Source of the DNA: Candidatus Uhrbacteria bacterium
Lineage (GTDB): Bacteria; Patescibacteriota; Patescibacteriia; JACPHY01
Direction of reading: 5' to 3'
Length of the DNA stretch: 64,000 nt
Assembly: GCA_016188355.1 (NCBI GenBank)
Contig: JACPHY010000011.1
Span: forward strand, 23,219-87,218
Both the position numbers and the translations under genes were made by a program. The first letter of the stretch is position 1. The number at the start of each line of letters is the position of its first letter. The notes below the pieces were generated by a model. The model searched no databases. It saw nothing but the letters and a program-made list of their open reading frames with translations, and was not told where the DNA came from. This document shows positions 39,123-60,003 of this stretch, in pieces.

Positions 39123-39911
39123 CTAGGAAATAGTGACCTCTCGATGCAGACGTTCCACTGCGACGGCGCGATGTGCGAGCGGATCCACATCCACGAGCAT
39201 CGCATGTACCCATGCCGGACCCGTTTCCGGCCACACGTACCGTTGTGGTATGGCGGTCACGAATTGCGGAATGGAGGTGGCGGGATCCACGCCGATCACC
39301 GAGTCGCGCGCGCCGGTCATGCCTACGTCTGTCACGAACGCGGTGCCCTGTGGCAGGATGCGGGCATCAGCCGTCGGAATGTGCGTGTGGGTGCCGTAGA
39401 TGATCGTCGCGCGACCATCCGCGTACCAACCGAATGCATTTCGTTCGGAAGATGCTTCTCCGTGAAAATCCACAATCACCACGTCCGCGGGATGCTCCGT
39501 CACGATCGAGTCGAAGGTGCGGAACGGATTATCCACGAGGTCCTTCATGAATACCCTCCCGAGCAAATTTACCACAAGCACTGTTTTCCCGTCAACGGAC
39601 AGTGTTTTCCACCCCACTCCCGGAGCACCTGGCGGATAGTTGGCGGGGCGGATGATTCGGGCATCGGGTCGGCGCATGAGTTCGATGCCCTCGGGCTTGT
39701 CCCAGACGTGATTGCCGCCCGTGAGCAGCGTCACACCCGCGTCGAGCACATCGGCGAGTGTCTTCTCGGTCATGCCGAGGCCGTGCGCGAGGTTTTCGCC
39801 ATTCGCAAGCACCACGTCTGGCTGGTATTGCTGGCGCAGTTCCGGCAGCACGCGCGCGAGTGCTTGTCGACCAATTTTTCCAACGACATCACCGAAGATG
39901 AGGAAGCGCAC
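39123..39911 (-). CDS. ymdB: YmdB-family metallophosphoesterase (2',3'-cNMP phosphodiesterase-like)
   Basis: MRFLIFGDVVGKIGRQAL...LANGENLAHGLG...GGNHVWDK... is typical of TIGR00282/YmdB. Immediately downstream of rny, as in Bacillus. Confidence 0.75.
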   Translation of the reverse strand: MRFLIFGDVVGKIGRQALARVLPELRQQYQPDVVLANGENLAHGLGMTEKTLADVLDAGVTLLTGGNHVWDKPEGIELMRRPDARIIRPANYPPGAPGVGWKTLSVDGKTVLVVNLLGRVFMKDLVDNPFRTFDSIVTEHPADVVIVDFHGEASSERNAFGWYADGRATIIYGTHTHIPTADARILPQGTAFVTDVGMTGARDSVIGVDPATSIPQFVTAIPQRYVWPETGPAWVHAMLVDVDPLAHRAVAVERLHREVTIS

Positions 39912-39929
39912 AGGAGGAAGAGGGAAGAA

Positions 39930-41459
39930 TCATCGGGCGTATTCGATGGCGCGGGTCTCCCGGATGGCGGTGACTTTGATTTCTCCGGGGTAGGTGAGTT
40001 CCTGTTCGATTTTTTTCGCAATCTCCTTGGCGGTGCGATACATCGTGAGATCGTCCATCTTTTGCGGGGAGAAGAAGACACGCACCTCGCGCCCGGCCTG
40101 GATGGCGTACGCTTTGTCCACGCCCTCGAAGGAGACGGCGACCCGTTCGAGTTCCTCCAGGCGTTTGAGGTAATCCTCGTAGCTATCTTTTCGTGCACCG
40201 GGCCGTGCGCCCGAGATGGCGTCAGCGGCCTTCACGATGCATCCGACCACCGTCGTCGGCTTATCCTCATGATGGGCGATGGGAGCGTAGCACACCTCCT
40301 CGGACATCCCGAATTTTTTGAGGATATTGTAACCGATCTCGATGTGCGTTCCCGGAATATCGTGATCTACGGATTTTCCGATGTCGTGGAAGAGTCCGCC
40401 GCGTTTCGCGTCGGCGACATTTTGACCGAGTTCCACGGCCATGAGGCCGGCCAGGTTGGCTACCTCGATCGAGTGGAGGAGTACGTTCTGCCCGTAGCTC
40501 GTGCGGTACTTCAGGCGGCCGAGTACCTGGACGAGTTTCGGATCGATGCCCGTGATGCCGAGTTGGAAGAGCGCGTCTTCGCCCGCCTTCCGGACATCCG
40601 TTGCAAGTTCCTTCTTCGCATTTTCTACTGCTTCCTCGACACGTCCCGGATGGATGCGGCCATCCTGAATGAGGTCCTCAATGGCGCGTTTCGCTACTTG
40701 CCGGCGAATCGGAGAGAATCCCGAGATCGTGATCGTCATCGGCGTTTCGTCCACGATGATTTCGCAGCCGGTCAGTTGCTCGATCGCCTTGATGTTGCGT
40801 CCCTCCTTGCCGATGATGCGTCCCTTCATGTCATCAGAGGGGAGGGTCACGCTCGATGTGGTCGTTTCGACCGAATGGGAAGAGGCGAGTCGTTGGATGG
40901 CGGTCGAGAGAATCGTTCGCGCCTTTCGTTCGATTTCCTCCGCATTTTCCTGCTCGAGTTTTCGGAGGCGCGCCGTGAGTGAGTCACGAGTGTCTTCGGC
41001 CACGCGTGCGAGGAGTCGCTCCTGTGCGGCGTCTCGCGGGAGCTGTGCGATTTCTTCGAGCTTCTTGATCTCGGCGTCACGGAGGGACTCGATGGCGCGT
41101 TTCGCTTCCTCTAATTTCGTGCGTTGTTCCTCCACGCGAGATTGCTGCTCTTGCAATTCGATCAGTTTCTGATCGAACAGTGTTTCTCGTTTTTCGAGTC
41201 GTTGCTGCATCGCGGAGAGTTCGCGGCGGCGCTCGGTTTCCTCGCGCTTCGCGTCATCCACGATTTTGAGTCCTTTTTCCTTTGCCTTGAGGAGGAAGTC
41301 ATGCTCCCGACGCTTTGCGTCTTGGAGAATTTCTTCGGCGCGACGCTCCGCCGCAGATACGCGCCGCGCAGCCATCAGGTGGCGATACGCGTACCCCATC
41401 GCGGCGCCGCTCACTAAAATGGCGGCACCACCAATCACAATCATCAATACCTCGGGCAT
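39930..41459 (-). CDS. rny: ribonuclease Y
   Basis: N-terminal TM helix, coiled coil, KH domain (IIGKEGRNIKAIEQLTGCEIIVDE) and HD domain (GLFHDIGKSVDHD...HH). Confidence 0.9.
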   Translation of the reverse strand: MPEVLMIVIGGAAILVSGAAMGYAYRHLMAARRVSAAERRAEEILQDAKRREHDFLLKAKEKGLKIVDDAKREETERRRELSAMQQRLEKRETLFDQKLIELQEQQSRVEEQRTKLEEAKRAIESLRDAEIKKLEEIAQLPRDAAQERLLARVAEDTRDSLTARLRKLEQENAEEIERKARTILSTAIQRLASSHSVETTTSSVTLPSDDMKGRIIGKEGRNIKAIEQLTGCEIIVDETPMTITISGFSPIRRQVAKRAIEDLIQDGRIHPGRVEEAVENAKKELATDVRKAGEDALFQLGITGIDPKLVQVLGRLKYRTSYGQNVLLHSIEVANLAGLMAVELGQNVADAKRGGLFHDIGKSVDHDIPGTHIEIGYNILKKFGMSEEVCYAPIAHHEDKPTTVVGCIVKAADAISGARPGARKDSYEDYLKRLEELERVAVSFEGVDKAYAIQAGREVRVFFSPQKMDDLTMYRTAKEIAKKIEQELTYPGEIKVTAIRETRAIEYAR

Positions 41460-41892
41460 ACAATGCCCACGAGGCTCCGGACGAGGCGTCTCCAGTCCCG
41501 AATGATGTACGAGATCACGCGTCCTCACCGATGAGTGAGGGAATCGATAACGGTACAAGCTCCACCGGAGCGATATCCGGTGAGCGCAGAGCGATCAGCA
41601 CTTCGAGTACGTGCGCGTGCAACATGCGATAGGTCTTCTTGGACGACGCGTTGGAGTGTTCGTGGGATCCATTAACAGAGGAGGGCAGAGAGGCCCTTCG
41701 CATCGAAGCGTAGCATGCAGATATTGGCGGGACAAGAACAGGGGAACGGCGCAACTGAGCCGTTGCGGCAGTATCTCGGGTGCGTGGTTGACGGGCAAGG
41801 AAAACGGAATACGACCGAAATTTCGTATGTCATCGCTTGACTGAGCGGAAACATCGCGGGTACCGTGGAGAGTATTACCGACGCTCGCTGCT

Positions 41893-43911: not shown

Positions 43912-43943
43912 GAATCAGCCGAGAGTGACGCGCAAGTGTACAC

Positions 43944-43980
43944 CACCGGAGTCGCCCTGCGACTCCGGTGGTGTGTTGAC
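43944..43980 (+). terminator. hairpin after infB
   Basis: caccaccggagtcgc-cct-gcgactccggtggtg perfect 15-bp stem with no strong T-tract. Confidence 0.5.
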
Positions 43981-44190
43981 GAGGTTTTGGACAAACAGGA
44001 TCGGGTCGCGTGCGGAGCTTTGGTATACCGGAGGTGGTGGGTTGACGAGGCCGGCGGAAGCGGGTACGGTCAGCGCAGTAGTGCACATTCACAACACATG
44101 GGAACCAGGTCGAAATCGGCGCGAACGACGACACGGCGACGGACCACCCGGAAAAAGGGTGTATCTGCGCGAGAACAGAGGAGGAAGGCA

Positions 44191-45240
44191 GTGACGAGCG
44201 ATCCTGTGACGAGCGCGGTCGCTTTGGATCACTACGCTGCGCTCGAGGTGCATCCCCGTGCGCGGCATAGCGTGATTCGGGCTGCGTATCGCGTCCTGGC
44301 AAAAGAGTATGCTCCGGATAATGCGAGCACCGGGAATGCTGATGCGTTTCGGCGCATCACTGCAGCACATGACGTGCTCGCCGATGCGGATCGGCGCGCC
44401 GTGTATGATGGCGATCGCGGGAAACTCGAGGGCAAGATCGTGGGTGAGCGGTGGCGTGTGCTTTCCCGAATTGCCGAGGGCGCAATCGGGAAGACGTACA
44501 AGGGTGAGCATGTGCTCACCCGGAAGCCGATCTGCATCAAGTTCTGCGCGGAACTCGACCCGCAGTTTGGCGAGATCATGCTCCACGAGGCCGAGGTGAT
44601 GTGGGATTTGCACCACTACGCATTGCCGGCAATTCGTGACGTATTCCTGCACGAGGAGATCGTGACGCTCGTCATGAGCTACGCACCGGGACTCACGATC
44701 GCGCAGCAAGTGGAGCGGTACGGGCGTCTCCCCGCGATTCATGTGGCGTGGATTACGGACCGCATCCTGAATGCGCTCGTCTATCTCCATGATGAAGAGG
44801 TGGTGCATGGCGACCTCAAGCCGCAGAACGTGATCCTGAGTAAACCGAAGAAGCATGTGCTCACCCTCGTCGATTTCGGCCTCGCCATGGCAAAGCCGAG
44901 ACGGGATTCCGAGAATCTCGGATACACGGATTACTTCTCGGCACCAGAACAGGTGGCGATGCGGGGGCCATTGGTACCGGCATCGGATTTCTATGCGCTC
45001 GGCATGACCATGCTCTACATGCTCGGCGGTGAACGGGGGCTGCTCGCGAAGCAGGTACCCGAGGAAACGCCGGATCCGATGAGCAGGTTCATTCAGAAGA
45101 TCATTGTTCGTGATCCACTGGCTAGGCGTTTCCGCACGCAGGAATTGTGCGATGAGTTTCAGGACGTCCGTGTGCGTTCCTTCGGGAAGCCGCGCACGAG
45201 TCTGGAGCCACTCCCCGGCGCAGAGCGCGCGGGGACTTGA
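44191..45240 (+). CDS. J-domain (DnaJ N-terminal) fused to a Ser/Thr protein kinase domain
   Basis: GTG start after the Shine-Dalgarno sequence GAGGAAGG. J-domain: DHYAALEVHPRARHSVIRAAYRVLAKEYAPDN...DVLADADRRAVYD. Kinase: Gly-rich/VAIK-like IGKTYKG...ICIKF, catalytic loop HGDLKPQNVIL, DFG (LVDFGLA), and APE-like SAPE. Confidence 0.8.
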   Translation: MTSDPVTSAVALDHYAALEVHPRARHSVIRAAYRVLAKEYAPDNASTGNADAFRRITAAHDVLADADRRAVYDGDRGKLEGKIVGERWRVLSRIAEGAIGKTYKGEHVLTRKPICIKFCAELDPQFGEIMLHEAEVMWDLHHYALPAIRDVFLHEEIVTLVMSYAPGLTIAQQVERYGRLPAIHVAWITDRILNALVYLHDEEVVHGDLKPQNVILSKPKKHVLTLVDFGLAMAKPRRDSENLGYTDYFSAPEQVAMRGPLVPASDFYALGMTMLYMLGGERGLLAKQVPEETPDPMSRFIQKIIVRDPLARRFRTQELCDEFQDVRVRSFGKPRTSLEPLPGAERAGT

Positions 45241-45252
45241 AAGGAGTGTGCC

Positions 45253-46317
45253 ATGTCCGAATCCGGTGATTATCAGCAATCCTCGTACTGGTCGGGACAC
45301 GATTTCGGTGATGCCTATGCGCGATACGATCAGCACGCCGGGCGGAGCTACGCGCAGGCGCAGTCCGCGGGGGTGACGATTCAGGATCTCGTGCCGAAGC
45401 GGATCAGCACGCAGAGCACGCGACCACTGCTCATTCGCATCGACCATACCGGATCCATGCACGAAGCGCCGAAGAAGATCTTCGAGAAGCTGCCGTACCT
45501 CTCCCATGAGGCGCGCCAGTACCTCGGGGACGACACGGAGCTCAGCGTGGGTGCGATCGGAGATATGAGTAATGGTCAGGTGGCGGGCGAGGGCGATCGG
45601 TATCCGCTGCAGATTCGCGACTTCGCCCAGCTCTCCGTTCCGCAGGCAGGAGCAAAAACGAAGAGGAAAACGGCGCAATGGGAGGATCCCGAGATTGCGA
45701 AGCGCCTCCTCGAGCTGGTTATCGAGGGTGGCGGTGGTGGGCAGATGCATGAGAACTATGAGTTCGCCATGTTGTACGATGCGCGGAATGTGGACATGCC
45801 TCGTGCCATCACTCCGGTCGCCATCTACATTGGCGACGAGATGCCGTATGAGGTGCTCGCACCGGAGTACGCGGAGCATTACGGTCACCTCGCGCTCGAG
45901 AGGTCCATGACCATTCAGGAAGTGGTGGCGGAACTTCAGCAGAAGTACTCGGTGTACTTCATCCAGCTGCCATACAGCGGGCACGTAGATGGCGATCAGA
46001 TGACCGCAGACACGAAGACGGTGCATCGGACATGGGCGAATCTCCTCGGTGAGGATCAGGTGAAGTACCTGCCCGACCCCGCGCGTGTCGTCGATCTCAT
46101 TTTCGGCATCCTCGCGCAGGAGACCGGGCGAGACGCGTACTTCCGTCAGGAGATCGAAGCGCGTCAGACGCCGGCTCAGGTGCGGACGGTGTACAAGGCG
46201 CTCGGAACGACGCACAAGTTGCCGAGCGGCAAGGAGCCGAGGGGGCTGCGATCCGGCAAGTCGACGCTCCATCGACCGTCCTCCGGGAAGAAGACGAAGG
46301 GTCTCCTCGATGACTGA
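45253..46317 (+). CDS. von Willebrand factor type A (vWA) domain protein
   Basis: A beta-strand plus a MIDAS-like motif LLIRIDHTGSM (DxTGS). Followed by a Lys/Ser-rich tail. Confidence 0.5.
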   Translation: MSESGDYQQSSYWSGHDFGDAYARYDQHAGRSYAQAQSAGVTIQDLVPKRISTQSTRPLLIRIDHTGSMHEAPKKIFEKLPYLSHEARQYLGDDTELSVGAIGDMSNGQVAGEGDRYPLQIRDFAQLSVPQAGAKTKRKTAQWEDPEIAKRLLELVIEGGGGGQMHENYEFAMLYDARNVDMPRAITPVAIYIGDEMPYEVLAPEYAEHYGHLALERSMTIQEVVAELQQKYSVYFIQLPYSGHVDGDQMTADTKTVHRTWANLLGEDQVKYLPDPARVVDLIFGILAQETGRDAYFRQEIEARQTPAQVRTVYKALGTTHKLPSGKEPRGLRSGKSTLHRPSSGKKTKGLLDD

Positions 46318-47512
46318 TGCGCGCCCGCTCGATCTCCTCGTGACGCTCTGGCCGAGTTTCCCACACTTCGCGCAGTTCGCCGATGACCCGCGGCTCGCGG
46401 GCATTCGACTGAACAGTGCGATGGTGTCGAATGCGGAAATCGAGCAGGAGCTTGGGATTGCGGCGGCGCATCGGGGATCGGTTCCGCTCTTCTTCGACGT
46501 GAAGGGGCGACAGCTCCGCATAGTCGAGGTCGATGCGCAGCCGGATCATCTCGAGTGCGTGCTCAATCATCCGATTGCGGTACAGACGCCGACGTCCGTG
46601 CTGTTCAAGGGCGGTGAGGATTCCGCTCGGCTCGATCGGTTGGCGGATGGGGGGCGGCGCCTCATCTTTCATCGCGGACCGCGCTTCGCGGTGCGGCCGG
46701 GCGAATCGCTCCACATCCGTCATCCCTCGCTCCGCGTGTCCGGGAACCTCTTCACGGAGCAGGAGCTCCAGAAGATTGCGACCGTACGCGGAGCAGGATT
46801 CACGCGGTACTTCCTCTCGTACGTCGAGTCCGCGCGCGATGTGGATGAATTCCGGGAGCTGGTGGGTCGAGATGCGGAAGTTTGGTTGAAGATCGAGAAT
46901 CCGAAGGGCCTTCAGTATGTCGCCACGGAGTTCCGCAAGGAACCGAACCTCGTGCTCGTCGCCGCGTGTGGTGATCTCTACGTCGAGATGGAACGGCCGC
47001 ATGCAATCCTCGGCGCATTGCGGATGATCGTGGAGCATGATCCCGAGGCATGTGTGGGGTCGCGGATGTTGCTCTCGGTCGTGCAGGAGCCGCTTCCGCC
47101 GATGCTGCGGAGCGCACTCCAGTACATCGCGGAGCGGCGTCCGGAAACGAGTGATCTCCACCGCATGCTCATGGCGGTCCTCCATCGGCCGGTGCCCTCG
47201 CTTGCCGATTTCGCGCAGCTCGCGTGGCTCTACGATATCGGATACCGGCGGATGATGCTCTGTGATGAGCTCTGTCTCAAGGGTGAGTTGCTCACGACCG
47301 CGGTGCATGCATTCGATGCGTTCCGTACGTCGTACGGTGCGCCGATCACGAAAGCGTCGCCGCTGATATCGAAGGGGCATTCGGCGGCGGGATCGACGAG
47401 TGCGCCTGCGGCGACCACTACGCCTCCGCGTCCCACAGTGTCGGCTCCCATCAAGGGTCCGCGTATTCTTTGGACGCCACTACGATCGCCACCGCGCGGT
47501 GGCCCAAAATGA
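46310..47512 (+). CDS. divergent pyruvate-kinase-fold (PK barrel) protein
   Basis: Collinear with PK motifs: IRLNSAM (compare ARLNFSH), FFDVKGRQLRI (compare LLDTKGPEIRT), LKIENPKGL (compare KIENQEG), LVLVAACGDLYVEM (compare IMVARGDLGVEI). Several catalytic positions are substituted. Overlaps the vWA stop. Confidence 0.55.
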   Translation: MTDARPLDLLVTLWPSFPHFAQFADDPRLAGIRLNSAMVSNAEIEQELGIAAAHRGSVPLFFDVKGRQLRIVEVDAQPDHLECVLNHPIAVQTPTSVLFKGGEDSARLDRLADGGRRLIFHRGPRFAVRPGESLHIRHPSLRVSGNLFTEQELQKIATVRGAGFTRYFLSYVESARDVDEFRELVGRDAEVWLKIENPKGLQYVATEFRKEPNLVLVAACGDLYVEMERPHAILGALRMIVEHDPEACVGSRMLLSVVQEPLPPMLRSALQYIAERRPETSDLHRMLMAVLHRPVPSLADFAQLAWLYDIGYRRMMLCDELCLKGELLTTAVHAFDAFRTSYGAPITKASPLISKGHSAAGSTSAPAATTTPPRPTVSAPIKGPRILWTPLRSPPRGGPK

Positions 47513-47656
47513 CGTGATCATCGCACCGGCAGGCCATGCGCCTGCCGGTTTTCTCTATATTGCTTGACATATTGCGTGTGCGGTGAGAAAGTCCAGCTGG
47601 TTCCTTTCTTGCGAAATCGTGCACCGCGCGTCGGTGCAACGAGGAATGGAGGAGGT

Positions 47657-56651: not shown

Positions 56652-57710
56652 ATGTCGATGTTGGTGCTGGATCCGAAGATCACCCGACTTCCTGCTGTGA
56701 CGCAGACGAATGCATGGTATTCCGTCGTATGGTCCCCATCTGGCGCGTACGTGGCTGGGGTACAGGATATGAAGATCATTTCGTGTTGGCGTGGTGATGG
56801 GTCGCTGCTTTGGACGCAGGACTACTCGCGTGAGAGTGTACAGGATTGTGTATTCGCAGGCGACGACACGCTCTATGTGCGGTCCATCGGTTACTTCAGG
56901 GATGGCACACGTCGCGTGCGTATTCGGAGGTGCATGGTGCCGGATCGGCGTGGCCGCAATGCGATGGTGTGTTCCCGTCCGGTGTCTCGGCTGGGGTCCA
57001 TGGCGGCTACTAGGGATGGCGCCCTCCTTTATGCGGAGTGGTTGGGCAGTGGTCTTTCATGGCATCGGTACTCGCAATCATGCTCCCATCCGCACCAGTC
57101 GGTGATACGGGAGATTGCCTCCTGTGCGGATACGTTGCACTTCTCACGTGATGGGCGTTGGTTGTGGGAGGTGCAGCAGTCGAGCATCCAGGTAACGTGC
57201 ATGGTGACCAATGATACGGCGTGCGTCGCAAATTGTGGTGCTTCCATATTGGCGGTAGACGTTGCAGACGAGAGTCACCGTATTGCGGTGGTGCACCGAA
57301 ATGGACGTATTGCGGTCTTTGCGCATGAGCGAGATCCCCGTAACGGTGTGCTTCGAGTGGTGCGCGACCGTCCGGATCGGCGTTGGTGTCGGTCGATGCG
57401 GCATGCGGCAGTGATTTGGGGACCCGGTGATCATCTCTTCTTGTTGATTGGGCAAGAGCATCGCCTGTTGCTCGTTGACGCGGATGCCCCGGACGAACTT
57501 ACGGTCATGGCGGAAATACCGCAGGTGCGGCAGGTGGCGACGATCTCCCCTGATCCGCACGCGCGTCGGGTGTTCGTGCTCGGCTCGCTCTCCACACCGT
57601 CCGCATCGCGTCGCCGCGAATACGACTATGGTTCCGCGCTCCTCGATTTTGGTTCCCCCTACCTCGGCCTCGTTGCGCCCGTGCACTGGGCGGATGCATC
57701 GTTTGGGTAG
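56652..57710 (+). CDS. WD40-like beta-propeller paralog 5; C-terminus ...LDFGSPYLGLVAPVHWADASFG
   Basis: YSVVWSPSGAYVAG..., ISPDPHARRVFVLG. Confidence 0.7.
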   Translation: MSMLVLDPKITRLPAVTQTNAWYSVVWSPSGAYVAGVQDMKIISCWRGDGSLLWTQDYSRESVQDCVFAGDDTLYVRSIGYFRDGTRRVRIRRCMVPDRRGRNAMVCSRPVSRLGSMAATRDGALLYAEWLGSGLSWHRYSQSCSHPHQSVIREIASCADTLHFSRDGRWLWEVQQSSIQVTCMVTNDTACVANCGASILAVDVADESHRIAVVHRNGRIAVFAHERDPRNGVLRVVRDRPDRRWCRSMRHAAVIWGPGDHLFLLIGQEHRLLLVDADAPDELTVMAEIPQVRQVATISPDPHARRVFVLGSLSTPSASRRREYDYGSALLDFGSPYLGLVAPVHWADASFG

Positions 57711-57714
57711 CGCG

Positions 57715-57816
57715 ATTTGGTCCCATCCCCGGATGGGACTTCCCCCGCGGTGATCTTGCGGAAGATCGTTGCGGGGGAGGAATGTGGTATTGGTTCTTTC
57801 CCAAAGGAGGCGTGTC
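57715..57816 (+). promoter_or_regulatory. conserved leader L6 upstream of paralog 6
   Basis: TTGGTCCCATCCCCGGATGGGACTTCCCCCGCGGTGATCTTGCGGAAGATCGTTGCGGGGGAGGAATG...GGTTCTTTCCCAAAGGAGG..ATG. A-T to C-G covariation in the second hairpin. Confidence 0.6.
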
Positions 57817-58818
57817 ATGTCGAATGGATCGGCGGAACGTGGAAATTTGATTTCGGATCCGCGAGTCGTGCTCCTGTCCGGACCGGATCAGCGGGCGGAT
57901 AGTTGTGCGTGGTCTCCCTCGGGAAATCTCGGGGCGACCGTGCACGGGGGTACGTGTGTGTTGTGGGATCTCCATACGGGAGCAGCGACGGTGCGCTGTG
58001 CGACCGGTCGGCTGGTGCGCGACATTGCGTTTGATGGATCGGGTAGACGGATCATGGTCCTGGATGATCACAGCGTTTCTGCGTGGAGCGGTGAACGGGG
58101 AAACTACGAGGGCGTTGTGGTGCTCGCGAATGGATACCAGATGCTCTCCATTGGTGGCTATTATTTGGCTGCGTGGCAACCGGATCGCTGCCTGCTCCAG
58201 CCAATGCGAAGGGACGTGCTCGATCCCATCGAATTTCAGGAGCGGTGGAAGGCGGTAGTGCTCTCCGCGGATGGGTTGCTGACCTGGTTTCTTTGGTCGG
58301 ATGGTGTGGTGGCTGCGCATACGGGAGCGGGATCGGCACATCGTATCGCTGAATTTCCATTGGTCTGTGAGGGCCGTGATCGATCCATTGTCTGTGCGCT
58401 ACAGGGTCGGAGGGCGGTGGTGTGCTGTGGGGGGCATGTGCACGTGTTCGATTGCGATGCGCCGGAGCGTCAACGCGAGCGTATGTGGGCATTGACGGAT
58501 CCCATTCATGCAGCGACGTGGCTTTGGGGAGGACGAGCCCTACTGCTGGCGCATGGTGCATCGCGCGATGCGAGTCGGCTGTGCGGTATCGACGTGGCAA
58601 CTGGTTTTCCGTTTTGGCGCTCGTCGGCCCATACCTTGCAGCAGGTGACGGCATTTGCGTCCGCACCGGATGGCCATCGCGTGCTCTTGAATGCAGCATT
58701 GGTGACGCCGTTCTCGGCATCGGATGCGGAACGTTTTGGCGCGACGGTACTCGACTTCGGTGACCCGCCCTCGTCTTTGGGTGGTTCACTGCATTGGTCG
58801 GACGCGTCGTTTGGGTGA
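57817..58818 (+). CDS. WD40-like beta-propeller paralog 6; C-terminus ...LDFGDPPSSLGGSLHWSDASFG
   Basis: CAWSPSGNLGATVHGGTCVLWDLHTG..., ASAPDGHRVLLNAA. Confidence 0.7.
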   Translation: MSNGSAERGNLISDPRVVLLSGPDQRADSCAWSPSGNLGATVHGGTCVLWDLHTGAATVRCATGRLVRDIAFDGSGRRIMVLDDHSVSAWSGERGNYEGVVVLANGYQMLSIGGYYLAAWQPDRCLLQPMRRDVLDPIEFQERWKAVVLSADGLLTWFLWSDGVVAAHTGAGSAHRIAEFPLVCEGRDRSIVCALQGRRAVVCCGGHVHVFDCDAPERQRERMWALTDPIHAATWLWGGRALLLAHGASRDASRLCGIDVATGFPFWRSSAHTLQQVTAFASAPDGHRVLLNAALVTPFSASDAERFGATVLDFGDPPSSLGGSLHWSDASFG

Positions 58819-58866
58819 TGGAGTGCGAACATGGGATAGGGCGGCGACCGCGTACCAGGTCGACGC

Positions 58867-60003
58867 ATGGGAGGAATGATGGCATTGCTCGATTCCGCGG
58901 TGTCATTATTGACGCCGGATCTCTTTGCAAAAGCACGCGCCATATTGCCGCCGATTACCCTACCGCGGCCACGGCGTCGTTTGCTGGGCGGACTTCCCGA
59001 TCGACCGACTGCGCTGGTTTGGGCACCAGACGGATCACATCTTGCGATGATCTGCCACCCCGCGGAGACCGTGGTTTGGCATGCGACGCGTGATGCGTGC
59101 GATTATTTTCCGCCGGCCATGGCATTTGCGTTTACGGGAGGGGATGCACAAACGTTGTTGTGGGATGATGGGCAGCACGTGCAGCATTCGCGAATGCTCT
59201 TGACGGTGTCGATCGCGGAGGGTGCGTCGACGTCGTGCAAGCGGTGGTCGCGATTATTGCCCATGGATGCGGATCGCTGTGTGTTTGTCGAGGGATTCGA
59301 ACCGGATCGATTTCCTAAATCGGCTCGATGGACGGCGCGTTGCTTGGCGAGTGGTGCGTCCTGGCCCTTTGCGGGTGGGCCGTGTTCCGGGCCCGTCGAA
59401 GTCCTGCGCGACCATAATCTCCTGGCAGTGGCAGATGCGGCGTTATTGCAGTTTTGGGAGGTGCCGTCGCGCGGCGTGGAGCTGCCGAAGACGCTGTTGC
59501 GTCAGCAGGTTGCCATGCCGTGCACCGATGTCATTCGCGCGTTGGCGACCTACCAACACTCCTGCGTGGTGGGATGCGTGCGCGGGCATTGCTACGAATA
59601 CGATTGCCGTGCACAGGCGTGGACGCGAGGGGTCGAATGTCCCGGTAAGGATGCGATCACCGCGCTCGCGGTTTCGTCGGACGGGCGGGTACTGTTCGTG
59701 AGTACGAGCAATGCCGCATCGATGATTGGTATGGACTGGCAGCGCGGCGAGGTGTTGCGGAACATCGGCCCATTCTATCGTCGCCGGTCCCCGCGTCTGC
59801 TCGCGGCGAGCCCCGATTGCCGAGTGATCGCGTGCGATGAATATTTGCCGCCGACCGATGATCGGTGCTGGAGCGATCGGGTGCTCGACTGGTCGGATCG
59901 CATGGGTATCCGTTCTGGCGGACAGCTGCGCCTCGTCACGTTGCTCGATTTCGGCACACCGCATTTCGGGGTGACCCATTGGGCGGATGCGTCATTCGGG
60001 TGA
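58867..60003 (+). CDS. WD40-like beta-propeller paralog 7; C-terminus ...LDFGTPHFGVTHWADASFG
   Basis: No leader and a 48-nt gap after paralog 6. LVWAPDGSHLAMICHPAETVVWH..., AVSSDGRVLFVSTS. The start is ambiguous among three clustered ATGs. Confidence 0.65.
   Translation: MGGMMALLDSAVSLLTPDLFAKARAILPPITLPRPRRRLLGGLPDRPTALVWAPDGSHLAMICHPAETVVWHATRDACDYFPPAMAFAFTGGDAQTLLWDDGQHVQHSRMLLTVSIAEGASTSCKRWSRLLPMDADRCVFVEGFEPDRFPKSARWTARCLASGASWPFAGGPCSGPVEVLRDHNLLAVADAALLQFWEVPSRGVELPKTLLRQQVAMPCTDVIRALATYQHSCVVGCVRGHCYEYDCRAQAWTRGVECPGKDAITALAVSSDGRVLFVSTSNAASMIGMDWQRGEVLRNIGPFYRRRSPRLLAASPDCRVIACDEYLPPTDDRCWSDRVLDWSDRMGIRSGGQLRLVTLLDFGTPHFGVTHWADASFG

Follow-up and report, generated by a model that had tools for sequence, protein, structure and literature searches.

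To which system does a bacterial gene belong that joins a DnaJ-type J-domain to a Hanks-type Ser/Thr kinase? Such a gene lies at positions 44191-45240 of a 64,000-nucleotide stretch of DNA from a Candidatus Uhrbacteria bacterium (contig JACPHY010000011.1, positions 23,219 to 87,218 of the forward strand), which was analysed at its full length and is called the window here. An earlier interpretation made from the letters alone (the sequence-only reading) placed this J-kinase gene at the head of a same-strand cluster with genes for a von Willebrand factor A (vWA) protein, a pyruvate kinase (PK)-fold protein, a radical S-adenosylmethionine (radical-SAM) activase, beta-propeller proteins and an AAA+ protein. 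We found that the conserved unit is smaller. It consists of the J-kinase, vWA and PK-like genes, and this triad was seen in more than 60 loci from candidate phyla radiation (CPR) bacteria, DPANN archaea and huge-phage contigs; the downstream propeller/AAA+ cluster is a separate feature. We propose, with a probability of roughly 40%, that the triad may be a TerY-P-type vWA/kinase phosphorylation switch with a minimal pyruvate kinase as its output or fuel supply.

Three genes form a translationally coupled operon

The J-kinase gene and its two partners are encoded on the + strand between two hairpins:

43940..43974, + strand: GC-rich hairpin (16 bp), directly 3' of the infB (IF-2) stop codon
44180..44188, + strand: Shine-Dalgarno-like GGAGGAAGG, 5 nt 5' of the GTG at 44191 (GGAGGA = 44180-44185)
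44191..45240, + strand: J-domain::Ser/Thr kinase gene (349 aa), a single uninterrupted frame with a GTG start at 44191
45253..46317, + strand: vWA-fold partner gene (354 aa), ATG start with AAGGAG 7 nt 5' of the ATG
46310..47512, + strand: pyruvate-kinase-like gene (400 aa) for a protein with A and B domains that lacks the C domain; residues 356-400 form a disordered tail
47523..47556, + strand: intrinsic-terminator-like hairpin with a U-run, 11 nt past the PK-like stop codon

The vWA gene begins 12 nt past the kinase stop codon, and the start of the PK-like gene overlaps the vWA stop codon by 8 nt (ATGACTGA). The hairpin behind infB folds at -37.1 kcal/mol (z = -4.7), a value equalled by none of 200 shuffles, and has no U-run; it may serve as a terminator and would then mark the upstream boundary of the triad transcription unit. 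The downstream hairpin has a 10-bp stem with 8 GC pairs followed by TTTCTCT (z = -3.5, equalled by 0 of 200 shuffles). By this arrangement, the J-kinase gene is predicted to open an operon of three translationally coupled genes with a hairpin on either side. The same-strand order given in the sequence-only reading (vWA, PK fold, radical-SAM activase, propellers, AAA+) was correct, and the two genes that follow the kinase do encode a vWA-fold protein and a PK-fold protein.

The triad is conserved as a unit

We drew loci from 185,579 species genomes, from IMG/VR and from exact-protein look-ups, and probed them by tblastn with the window's neighbour genes. Genes for vWA-like and PK-like proteins adjoin essentially every orthologous kinase with flanking sequence (45 genome and 26 IMG/VR loci). 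Their order is mostly collinear, and in a few loci the vWA/PK-like pair is divergent from the kinase. Unsupervised clustering of the open reading frames (ORFs) around 80 loci recovered the kinase in 79, the vWA-like family in 65 and the PK-like family in 60, with the next family in at most 13. Pairwise distances of the triad proteins are correlated across 53 loci (r = 0.67-0.82), and 0 of 500 Mantel permutations gave values as high. The shared gene families and correlated distances indicate that the triad is inherited or transferred whole.

The other genes of the supposed cluster behave differently. When about 80 loci were searched by tblastn, no counterpart of the radical-SAM activase, of a propeller or of the AAA+ protein turned up next to the kinase outside the window. 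The J-kinase can therefore no longer be regarded as the head of a radical-SAM/propeller/AAA+ system, since a terminator-like hairpin separates it from these genes and only the vWA-like and PK-like genes travel with it. The suggested analogy to PkwA-type proteins, which combine a kinase with WD40 repeats, is left without support for the same reasons: no propeller is conserved with the kinase elsewhere, and in the window a terminator lies between them. Searches of the literature for J-kinases in CPR and DPANN, for DnaJ-fused Hanks kinases, for a huge-phage pyruvate kinase and for PDB entry 8IW2 returned nothing relevant, and the triad is apparently undescribed in the literature that could be searched.

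Synteny also bears on the simplest explanation of the locus, in which the protein is one Hanks kinase among many with a decaying accessory domain, its neighbourhood is meaningless and the PK-like protein is a glycolytic pyruvate kinase. This account can point to the NCBI name, which is merely 'protein kinase', to the loss of the J-domain HPD motif (His-Pro-Asp) in the window copy and to the name 'pyruvate kinase' that some sources give to PK-like relatives. It does not explain why the triad genes stay strictly side by side in more than 60 loci with very different flanks, divergent arrangements included, why the three proteins diverge in a correlated manner, why the genes are translationally coupled or why J-fold residues are kept even where HPD is gone. 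Synteny and co-variation already disfavour this explanation, which we regard as very improbable.

The first gene joins a full-length J-domain to a complete kinase domain

The J-kinase gene contains the following elements:

44227..44409, + strand: J-domain, residues 13-73 (PF00226)
44311..44319, + strand: APD at the HPD position, residues 41-43 (codons GCT CCG GAT)
44458..45045, + strand: kinase catalytic domain, Pfam-matched residues 90-285
45169..45219, + strand: conserved C-terminal tail, residues 327-343

The N-terminal fusion of a J-domain to a Hanks-type kinase was confirmed, as both Pfam domains score above their cutoffs within one 349-codon frame. The DnaJ model PF00226 matched with 53.1 bits against a gathering cutoff of 27.8, covering profile positions 1-63 of 63, and TIGR02349 (DnaJ_bact) likewise matched the J region. 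With the J-domain score well over threshold, a spurious low-scoring match can be dismissed. The Pkinase model PF00069 matched with 106.5 bits (cutoff 31.7), and a linker of only about 10 residues separates the two domains. All motif strings quoted in the sequence-only reading are found in the translation: APD at residues 41-43, HGDLKPQN at 206-213 (44806-44829), DFG at 228-230 and SAPE at 250-253. A Gly-rich loop, AEGAIGKT, is also present. In a 31-sequence alignment the residues K117 (beta3 Lys), E133 (alphaC Glu), H206-G207-D208, K210, N213, D228-F-G, E253 and D266 are invariant. The Arg before the catalytic Asp is replaced, and the invariant HGD assigns the kinase to the non-RD rather than the RD class. 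By these motifs, the product is a predicted catalytically complete Hanks-type Ser/Thr kinase fused to a full-length J-domain.

The protein ends in a conserved tail with the consensus R-x-x-S-F-G-R-x-R-[ST]-x-M-K-P-I-P-G, in which R327 and F331 are found in 100% of sequences, S/T336 in 98% and G332 in 97%. This basic tail is a candidate autophosphorylation site, pseudosubstrate or docking motif.

The gene itself is intact. The GTG at 44191 was also chosen as the start by an independent gene caller, and the database record for the exact protein match reads 'protein kinase [Candidatus Uhrbacteria bacterium]'. Besides this NCBI record, the same 349-aa protein occurs on two Logan contigs that were assembled separately from different sequencing runs. 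A frameshift splitting two genes was looked for and not found; the identical protein in independent assemblies shows that there is none. We rejected a longer ORF from 43936 (434 aa) that reads through the infB hairpin; homologues and gene callers start at the J-domain.

An artefact could in principle have taken two forms, with a frameshift or misassembly having joined two genes, or with the true gene being an 810-aa ORF on the - strand (44089-46521) that spans the kinase and vWA genes. This very long antisense ORF does exist, and a naive gene picker based on GC content at third codon positions preferred it over the real genes. Its translation is Arg-rich and of low complexity, as expected for a complementary frame in 60% GC DNA. 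The Pfam matches are on the + strand, more than 150 homologues share the J-kinase architecture and length, and the independent assemblies yield the identical protein. The antisense ORF is a high-GC artefact, and we consider the probability of an artefactual J-kinase, already refuted on this evidence, to be practically nil.

The claim that this architecture is rare in bacteria stood in part. We did not see it outside the family, and none of the 38 generic bacterial kinases that the same genome scan yielded has a J-domain. The family itself, however, is large, with 450 clusters at E<=1e-5 in a search of 5.8 billion proteins (90%-identity clusters). The best 120 of these 450 clusters share 42-55% identity over 92-98% coverage and are 327-353 aa long, save one of 396 aa; nearly all of these 120 hold both Pfam domains.

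The window copy has lost a family-wide HPD motif

The sequence-only reading took the APD at the HPD position for a possible non-canonical Hsp70-stimulating motif. Conservation speaks otherwise. Canonical HPD is present in 139 of 177 non-redundant relatives (79%); the other 38 have scattered replacements of HPD or lack the region, and APD occurs once, in the window copy. The nearest relatives of the window J-kinase carry HHPD, and the consensus J-domain carries HPD. A single-base error is not the cause, because converting Ala (GCT) to His (CAY) takes two base changes. A changed HPD histidine is a known, classical inactivating mutation that abolishes the functional interaction of J-domains with Hsp70 (PMC3486835). 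Since HPD is family-wide, APD is unique and changes of the histidine are inactivating (PMC3486835), we read the window APD as a probable recent, lineage-specific loss of Hsp70-ATPase stimulation. From this distribution, HPD is the predicted ancestral state in the J-kinase family.

The signature residues of J helices II, III and IV (Y15, L18, A24, A59, R69, Y72 and D73) are conserved across the family, and J-fold structural residues stay conserved in members that lack HPD.

Some kinases at triad loci depart from this design. Those of L042 (7974-10897), where the vWA gene is tandemly duplicated, and L043 (7998-8792) have no J-domain, and in L044 (7764-8804) a Cys-rich, Zn-ribbon-like N-terminus replaces it.

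The third gene encodes a truncated pyruvate kinase homologue

The PK-like protein is predicted, from motifs and a structural model, to be a truncated pyruvate kinase homologue: an A domain (TIM barrel) and a B domain (lid) are present, as is every phosphotransfer and metal motif. The single sequence scores 25 bits with Pfam PF00224, under the cutoff of 30. When the family profile was compared with the PDB, it matched pyruvate kinases at E 4e-13. The predicted structure (predicted local distance difference test score, pLDDT, 86.8) retrieved PKM2, PykA and other pyruvate kinases in Foldseek with E 1e-17 and probability 1.0. The best PDB sequence match of the family is 8iw2_A, an unusually short 'pyruvate kinase' chain of 321 aa, which is close in size to the truncated A+B form of the PK-like protein. 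The following segments align to pyruvate kinase:

46889..46897, + strand: KIE motif K194-I-E196, catalytic Lys and Mg-ligand Glu, invariant and aligned to 'KIEN' of yeast PK
GIRLNSAM, aligned to ARLNFSHG of PK
FDVKGRQLR, aligned to LDTKGPEIR of PK
LKIEN.KGL, aligned to SKIEN.EG of PK
AARGDLYVE, aligned to VARGDLGIE of PK
GSRxLLS, aligned to ATQMLES of PK
PVPSCAD...CDELC, aligned to PRPTRAE...SGETA of PK

Residues R33, N35, D63, K65, R70, K194, E196, G221, D222 and S251 are invariant in the family alignments. We take these positions to be the Arg and Asn of RLNxS, the Asp, Lys and Arg of DxKGxxxR, the KIE and GD motifs, and the Thr/Ser of ATQ. The protein may catalyze phosphotransfer between phosphoenolpyruvate (PEP) and ADP. 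The C-terminal allosteric domain (PK_C) is absent: homologues are 300-370 aa long and end after the barrel. The PK-like protein is the most conserved of the triad, with a mean pairwise identity of 56%, and its family comprises more than 1164 clusters, whose members some sources label 'pyruvate kinase'. Canonical pyruvate kinase has been reported in only about one third of CPR genomes, and divergent substitutes could escape the thresholds of hidden Markov models (HMMs) (PMC7304191).

The second gene encodes an unrecognized vWA-fold protein

The protein encoded between the kinase and PK-like genes matched no Pfam model, those for vWA and TerY included, and no PADLOC model, and neither did any of 39 relatives; its family profile found no match in the PDB. 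The vWA fold was recognised solely through structure prediction. Two elements of the protein stand out:

45442..45456, + strand: motif D64-H-T66-G-S68 of the metal ion-dependent adhesion site (MIDAS) type
46261..46263, + strand: Ser337 in a G-K-S motif of the disordered C-terminal tail, a candidate phospho-acceptor

D64, T66 and S68 are invariant, as are E167 and D195, and the site may bind a metal. According to the structural model, gene 2 encodes a vWA-fold protein that had gone unrecognised and whose MIDAS-type motif is intact. The C-terminal 35 or so residues are disordered (pLDDT <50), and the protein ends in L-[LIV]. Within this tail, Ser337 is 95% and G335 86% conserved, and the remainder is variable. 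Ser337 is a plausible site of phosphorylation; both this residue and S/T336 of the kinase tail stand in a [KR]-S-x-[ML] context.

The family is extensive. A profile search of 1.84 billion 50%-identity representatives returned 1835 members at E<=1e-3 and 1414 at E<=1e-10. Among distant relatives (P0460, P0486, P0469, P0468, P0463 and P0476), whose N-termini read MGG(D/G)YY(E/D)R, four representatives have C-terminal U-box fusions, one a NUDIX fusion (in a marine eukaryote transcript from MMETSP) and one a RanBP2-type zinc finger fusion. These architectures suggest a family branch, in eukaryotes or giant viruses, where the domain is combined with ubiquitin ligases. Given the fusions to U-box E3 domains, the vWA domain seems to partner repeatedly with protein-modifying enzymes.

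A proposed vWA/kinase switch with a pyruvate kinase as third member

What might such a unit do? Among described designs TerY-P comes nearest. TerY-P systems combine a TerY-like vWA protein, a PP2C phosphatase and a Ser/Thr kinase fused to a Zn-ribbon or OB fold, and they have been proposed to act as a phosphorylation switch (PMC11090510). They occur in cells and in mobile contexts, and some versions are antiphage (PMC11090510). Like them, the triad is a compact operon in which a vWA protein with a MIDAS motif is paired with a Hanks-type kinase that has a small accessory domain. Several features set it apart. No PP2C gene was found among the shared neighbours of the triad, and a pyruvate kinase homologue stands in its place. 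The accessory domain is an N-terminal J-domain instead of a C-terminal Zn-ribbon or OB fold, and the C-terminus consists of a short conserved tail. The vWA protein is not a TerY-family sequence and matches no PADLOC model, and the flanks of cellular loci are housekeeping genes. The kinase of L044, with its Zn-ribbon-like Cys-rich N-terminus, comes closer to TerY-P. Despite the differences, the triad plausibly operates along similar lines. On this comparison the triad would be a variant of the vWA/kinase switch theme that has acquired a J-domain and a minimal pyruvate kinase and is widespread in little-studied lineages.

In the mechanism that we favour, the vWA protein would act as an adaptor, and the complex would be assembled via its MIDAS metal site. 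The kinase would phosphorylate the near-invariant Ser in the disordered tail of this partner, and it would probably also phosphorylate its own R-x-R-S/T tail, the PK-like enzyme or both. Phosphorylation could then replace the allosteric control that was lost with the C domain of the PK-like protein. In most members, the HPD-bearing J-domain would dock ATP-bound DnaK (Hsp70), so that the complex is remodelled or the kinase is brought to DnaK clients. The window copy would differ, as APD should abolish stimulation of the Hsp70 ATPase; it is most likely independent of DnaK and may keep the J-fold as a structural appendage of the kinase N-lobe.

Other known proteins share parts of this design. GAK (auxilin-2, the cyclin-G-associated kinase) is the one well-known protein with both a Ser/Thr kinase and a J-domain, and its J-domain brings Hsc70 to the kinase's site of action. 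GAK has more than 1300 residues, with the kinase N-terminal, the J-domain C-terminal, and PTEN-like and clathrin-binding regions. The domain order is thus the reverse of that in the J-kinase, and the comparison covers the two generic domains. In Sulfolobus, the zinc-ribbon-FHA protein ArnA and the vWA protein ArnB are controlled by Hanks kinases. The Arn proteins involve neither a J-domain nor a PK-like partner, and their similarity to the triad is at the fold level only. Gene 3 has the A and B domains of PykF and PKM2 as well as all their motifs for phosphotransfer and metal binding; it differs in lacking the allosteric C domain and in being encoded alongside kinase and vWA genes. Finally, Rki of phage RB43 is a small type III J-domain protein that acts through host DnaK and depends on its HPD histidine (PMC3486835). 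Unlike the J-kinase, Rki lacks a kinase domain and is not accompanied by vWA or PK partners.

Distribution and genomic setting of the triad

The window is an ordinary segment of a CPR chromosome with a uniform GC content of about 60%. It encodes SMC, VanW, alanine racemase, a PilB-type ATPase, FtsH, ribosomal protein S1, GyrA, TsaD, YmdB, RNase Y, IF-2, thioredoxin-reductase-like and glutamate-dehydrogenase proteins and three tRNAs. Elsewhere among CPR bacteria, the triad occurs in bins of Parcubacteria, Microgenomates, Saccharibacteria and Peribacteria and in a complete Sungiibacteriota genome. The DPANN bins belong to Woesearchaeota and Nanoarchaeota, and a few bins are oddly labelled. The triad is also found on 26 IMG/VR contigs of 4-485 kb, all save one at least 45 kb long, and on LR745208.1, deposited as an 'uncultured phage' of 485 kb. 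When the concatenated triads were clustered, they fell into a DPANN clade, several clades of IMG/VR contigs only and CPR clades; the window triad is a singleton with about 53% identity to its nearest neighbours. One clade, with contigs of 130-491 kb, has dense small same-strand ORFs and genes for CYTH, ADP-ribosylglycohydrolase, NUDIX, HNH, R2K ATP-grasp and RNase HII proteins, and it looks phage-like. In 23 cellular loci the flanks are housekeeping genes, among them aminoacyl-tRNA synthetases, NAD synthase (three times), NAD kinase (twice), Pol III alpha and DnaB, and defence models gave almost no matches there.

This setting bears on whether the triad serves in conflict. It could be a TerY-P-like defence or counter-defence cassette, in which the kinase, sensing infection or host defence through the vWA protein, mass-phosphorylates cellular targets that include DnaK clients, and the PK-like enzyme refills ATP and other nucleoside triphosphate (NTP) pools. 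TerY-P-like vWA and kinase modules are stand-alone antiphage systems (PMC11090510). The distribution of the triad over CPR, DPANN and odd bins is sporadic, its presence in a 485-kb huge phage and 26 IMG/VR contigs fits a role in conflict, and the phage-like clade has as neighbours an RNA ligase gene and the CYTH, ADP-ribosylglycohydrolase, NUDIX, HNH and R2K ATP-grasp genes. A related phage pair (below) lies beside Pnk and an adenylosuccinate-synthetase-like gene, and the window triad adjoins a diversifying propeller/AAA+ array. The best PADLOC matches of the kinase domain are the PD-T4-6 and mad6 kinases; these matches reflect generic kinase-domain similarity, and the vWA and PK-like proteins match no PADLOC model. 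There is no PP2C partner, the 23 cellular loci are flanked by housekeeping and not by defence genes, and the uniform GC of the window gives no sign of an island. We consider a conflict system unlikely. Membership of the kinase in PD-T4-6, mad6, PglW, LanL or PknB was rejected, as matches to these PADLOC and NCBIfam models were far under the family cutoffs or confined to the kinase domain.

A homologous gene pair in Bxz1-like mycobacteriophages

About 141 cultured Bxz1-like mycobacteriophages (Bixzunavirus, cluster C) carry adjacent genes, gp257 ('kinase') and gp258, that are homologous to the J-kinase and vWA genes and in the same order. In hhalign, gp258 aligned to the vWA-like profile with probability 99.95 and E 6e-38, and gp257 to the J-kinase profile with probability 99.3 and E 1.5e-20, the latter from J helix II through HPD ('SLASAVHPD') into the kinase fold. 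PHROGs places the pair in phrog_3043 and phrog_2971 (function of the latter not assigned), and the window proteins match the same families. The phage proteins have diverged from those of the triad. HGAITPDN replaces HGDLKPQN in gp257, with loss of the catalytic Asp and Lys (HGA/T for HGD/K), and its J-like region lacks helix IV and has no Pfam DnaJ match. gp257 is probably a J-like pseudokinase. In phage LinStu (NC_023714.1, L170; 3233-5361), the pair adjoins Pnk and an adenylosuccinate-synthetase-like gene.

The phage homologues raise the question of whether the J-kinase is primarily an early phage protein that hijacks host DnaK through its J-domain and, like T7 gp0.7, phosphorylates the machinery of the host, with cellular copies being domesticated or prophage-derived. 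Rki of RB43 is a precedent for a DnaK-binding J-domain protein encoded by a phage (PMC3486835). The pairs in some 141 cultured Bixzunavirus genomes and the triad clades made up of IMG/VR contigs only would also fit. Several observations point the other way. The window is an ordinary CPR chromosome segment in which no phage genes lie close to the triad. The copies in DPANN and CPR fall into clades of their own, which suggests long cellular residence, and the mycobacteriophage kinase has no catalytic Asp and Lys, so that phosphorylation is not the shared activity there. Host takeover as the basis of the family seems to us distinctly unlikely.

Weighing the switch model

Several findings weigh against a phosphorylation switch that feeds or controls a pyruvate kinase. 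About 21% of J-kinase members are without HPD, and some lack the J-domain altogether or have a Cys-rich N-terminus in its place; because HPD or the whole J-domain has been lost in these members, coupling to Hsp70 would be dispensable for the core function. No PK-like gene is present in the Bxz1-like phages that carry the gp257/gp258 pair, which implies that the J-kinase/vWA pair has a role independent of PK. A Woesearchaeota locus (L038, 7989-10059) has the kinase and PK-like genes and no vWA gene within 8 kb. Finally, we looked for covariation between the motifs of the kinase and vWA tails and saw none. Since phages keep the pair without a PK-like gene, the evolutionary core is likely to be the J-(pseudo)kinase and the vWA protein; in CPR, DPANN and huge phages they are joined by the PK-like enzyme as third member.

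Between metabolism and defence, we favour a metabolic role because of the housekeeping flanks, the conservation of the PK-like protein and the patchy occurrence of canonical pyruvate kinase in CPR (PMC7304191). Conflict-related readings stay alive because of the PK-less phage pair, the anti-defence-looking neighbours and the sporadic distribution. A bolder version of the switch model would make the triad a self-contained, chaperone-coupled, phosphorylation-gated minimal pyruvate kinase, the 'missing' and HMM-invisible PK of many CPR and DPANN organisms, which huge phages would carry together with its two regulators so as to seize the regeneration of ATP and NTPs in their hosts. Its J-(pseudo)kinase/vWA pair would be an ancient protein-modification adaptor whose vWA domain was later joined to eukaryotic U-box ligases. 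We think this version rather unlikely.

If the switch model is correct, the last ATP-yielding step of glycolysis would be regulated by a dedicated kinase and a vWA adaptor instead of an allosteric domain. Such regulation would act in CPR and DPANN organisms, the ones with the least understood energy metabolism and with a patchy occurrence of canonical pyruvate kinase. The J-kinase would also give prokaryotes and phages an equivalent of the rare combination of kinase and J-domain known from eukaryotic GAK. Whatever its function, the kinase can be assigned to a three-gene unit and not to the propeller/AAA+ array. The analysis also defines a large vWA family without a Pfam model (1414 clusters at 50% identity at E<=1e-10), and the pair in cultivable phages of Mycobacterium smegmatis offers an immediate experimental handle.

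Other genes near the triad

NAD-related genes show a weak association with the triad. Among 122 neighbours at cellular loci there are, besides the NAD synthase and NAD kinase genes listed above, two cytidylyltransferase-like genes. The phage-like clade has NUDIX and ADP-ribosylglycohydrolase genes and a faint match to NAD synthase (L169, 3565-4647). Genes for RNase Y and YmdB are found a few kb upstream of the triad in two places, the window (39123-41558) and an unrelated 781-kb contig (L005, 5176-7626); this shared position may be the remnant of a conserved neighbourhood or a coincidence.

The position directly after the PK-like gene is variably occupied. A small GTPase-domain gene is found there in four IMG/VR contigs (L089, 11263-11670; L090, 10951-11337; L092, 11073-11615; L094, 10989-11531), with 28-32% identity to the G domain of IF-2. 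In the clade of L003 and L169, an R2K-clade ATP-grasp gene takes this position.

In the window, a 182-aa ORF, a 75-aa ORF and the NrdG-like radical-SAM activase gene lie between the triad terminator and the propeller array (47659-49042). The activase was called at 204 aa, the longest ORF being 351 aa; it matches Fer4_12 and scores 70 bits with TIGR02491, under that model's cutoff. No glycyl-radical enzyme is visible beside it. The array itself (49183-60003) contains seven divergent paralogues of 350-383 aa with 24-43% identity, a shared C-terminal region and weak WD40/beta-propeller matches. Interleaved with these paralogues is an AAA+ protein of 912-967 aa (50271/50436-53174).

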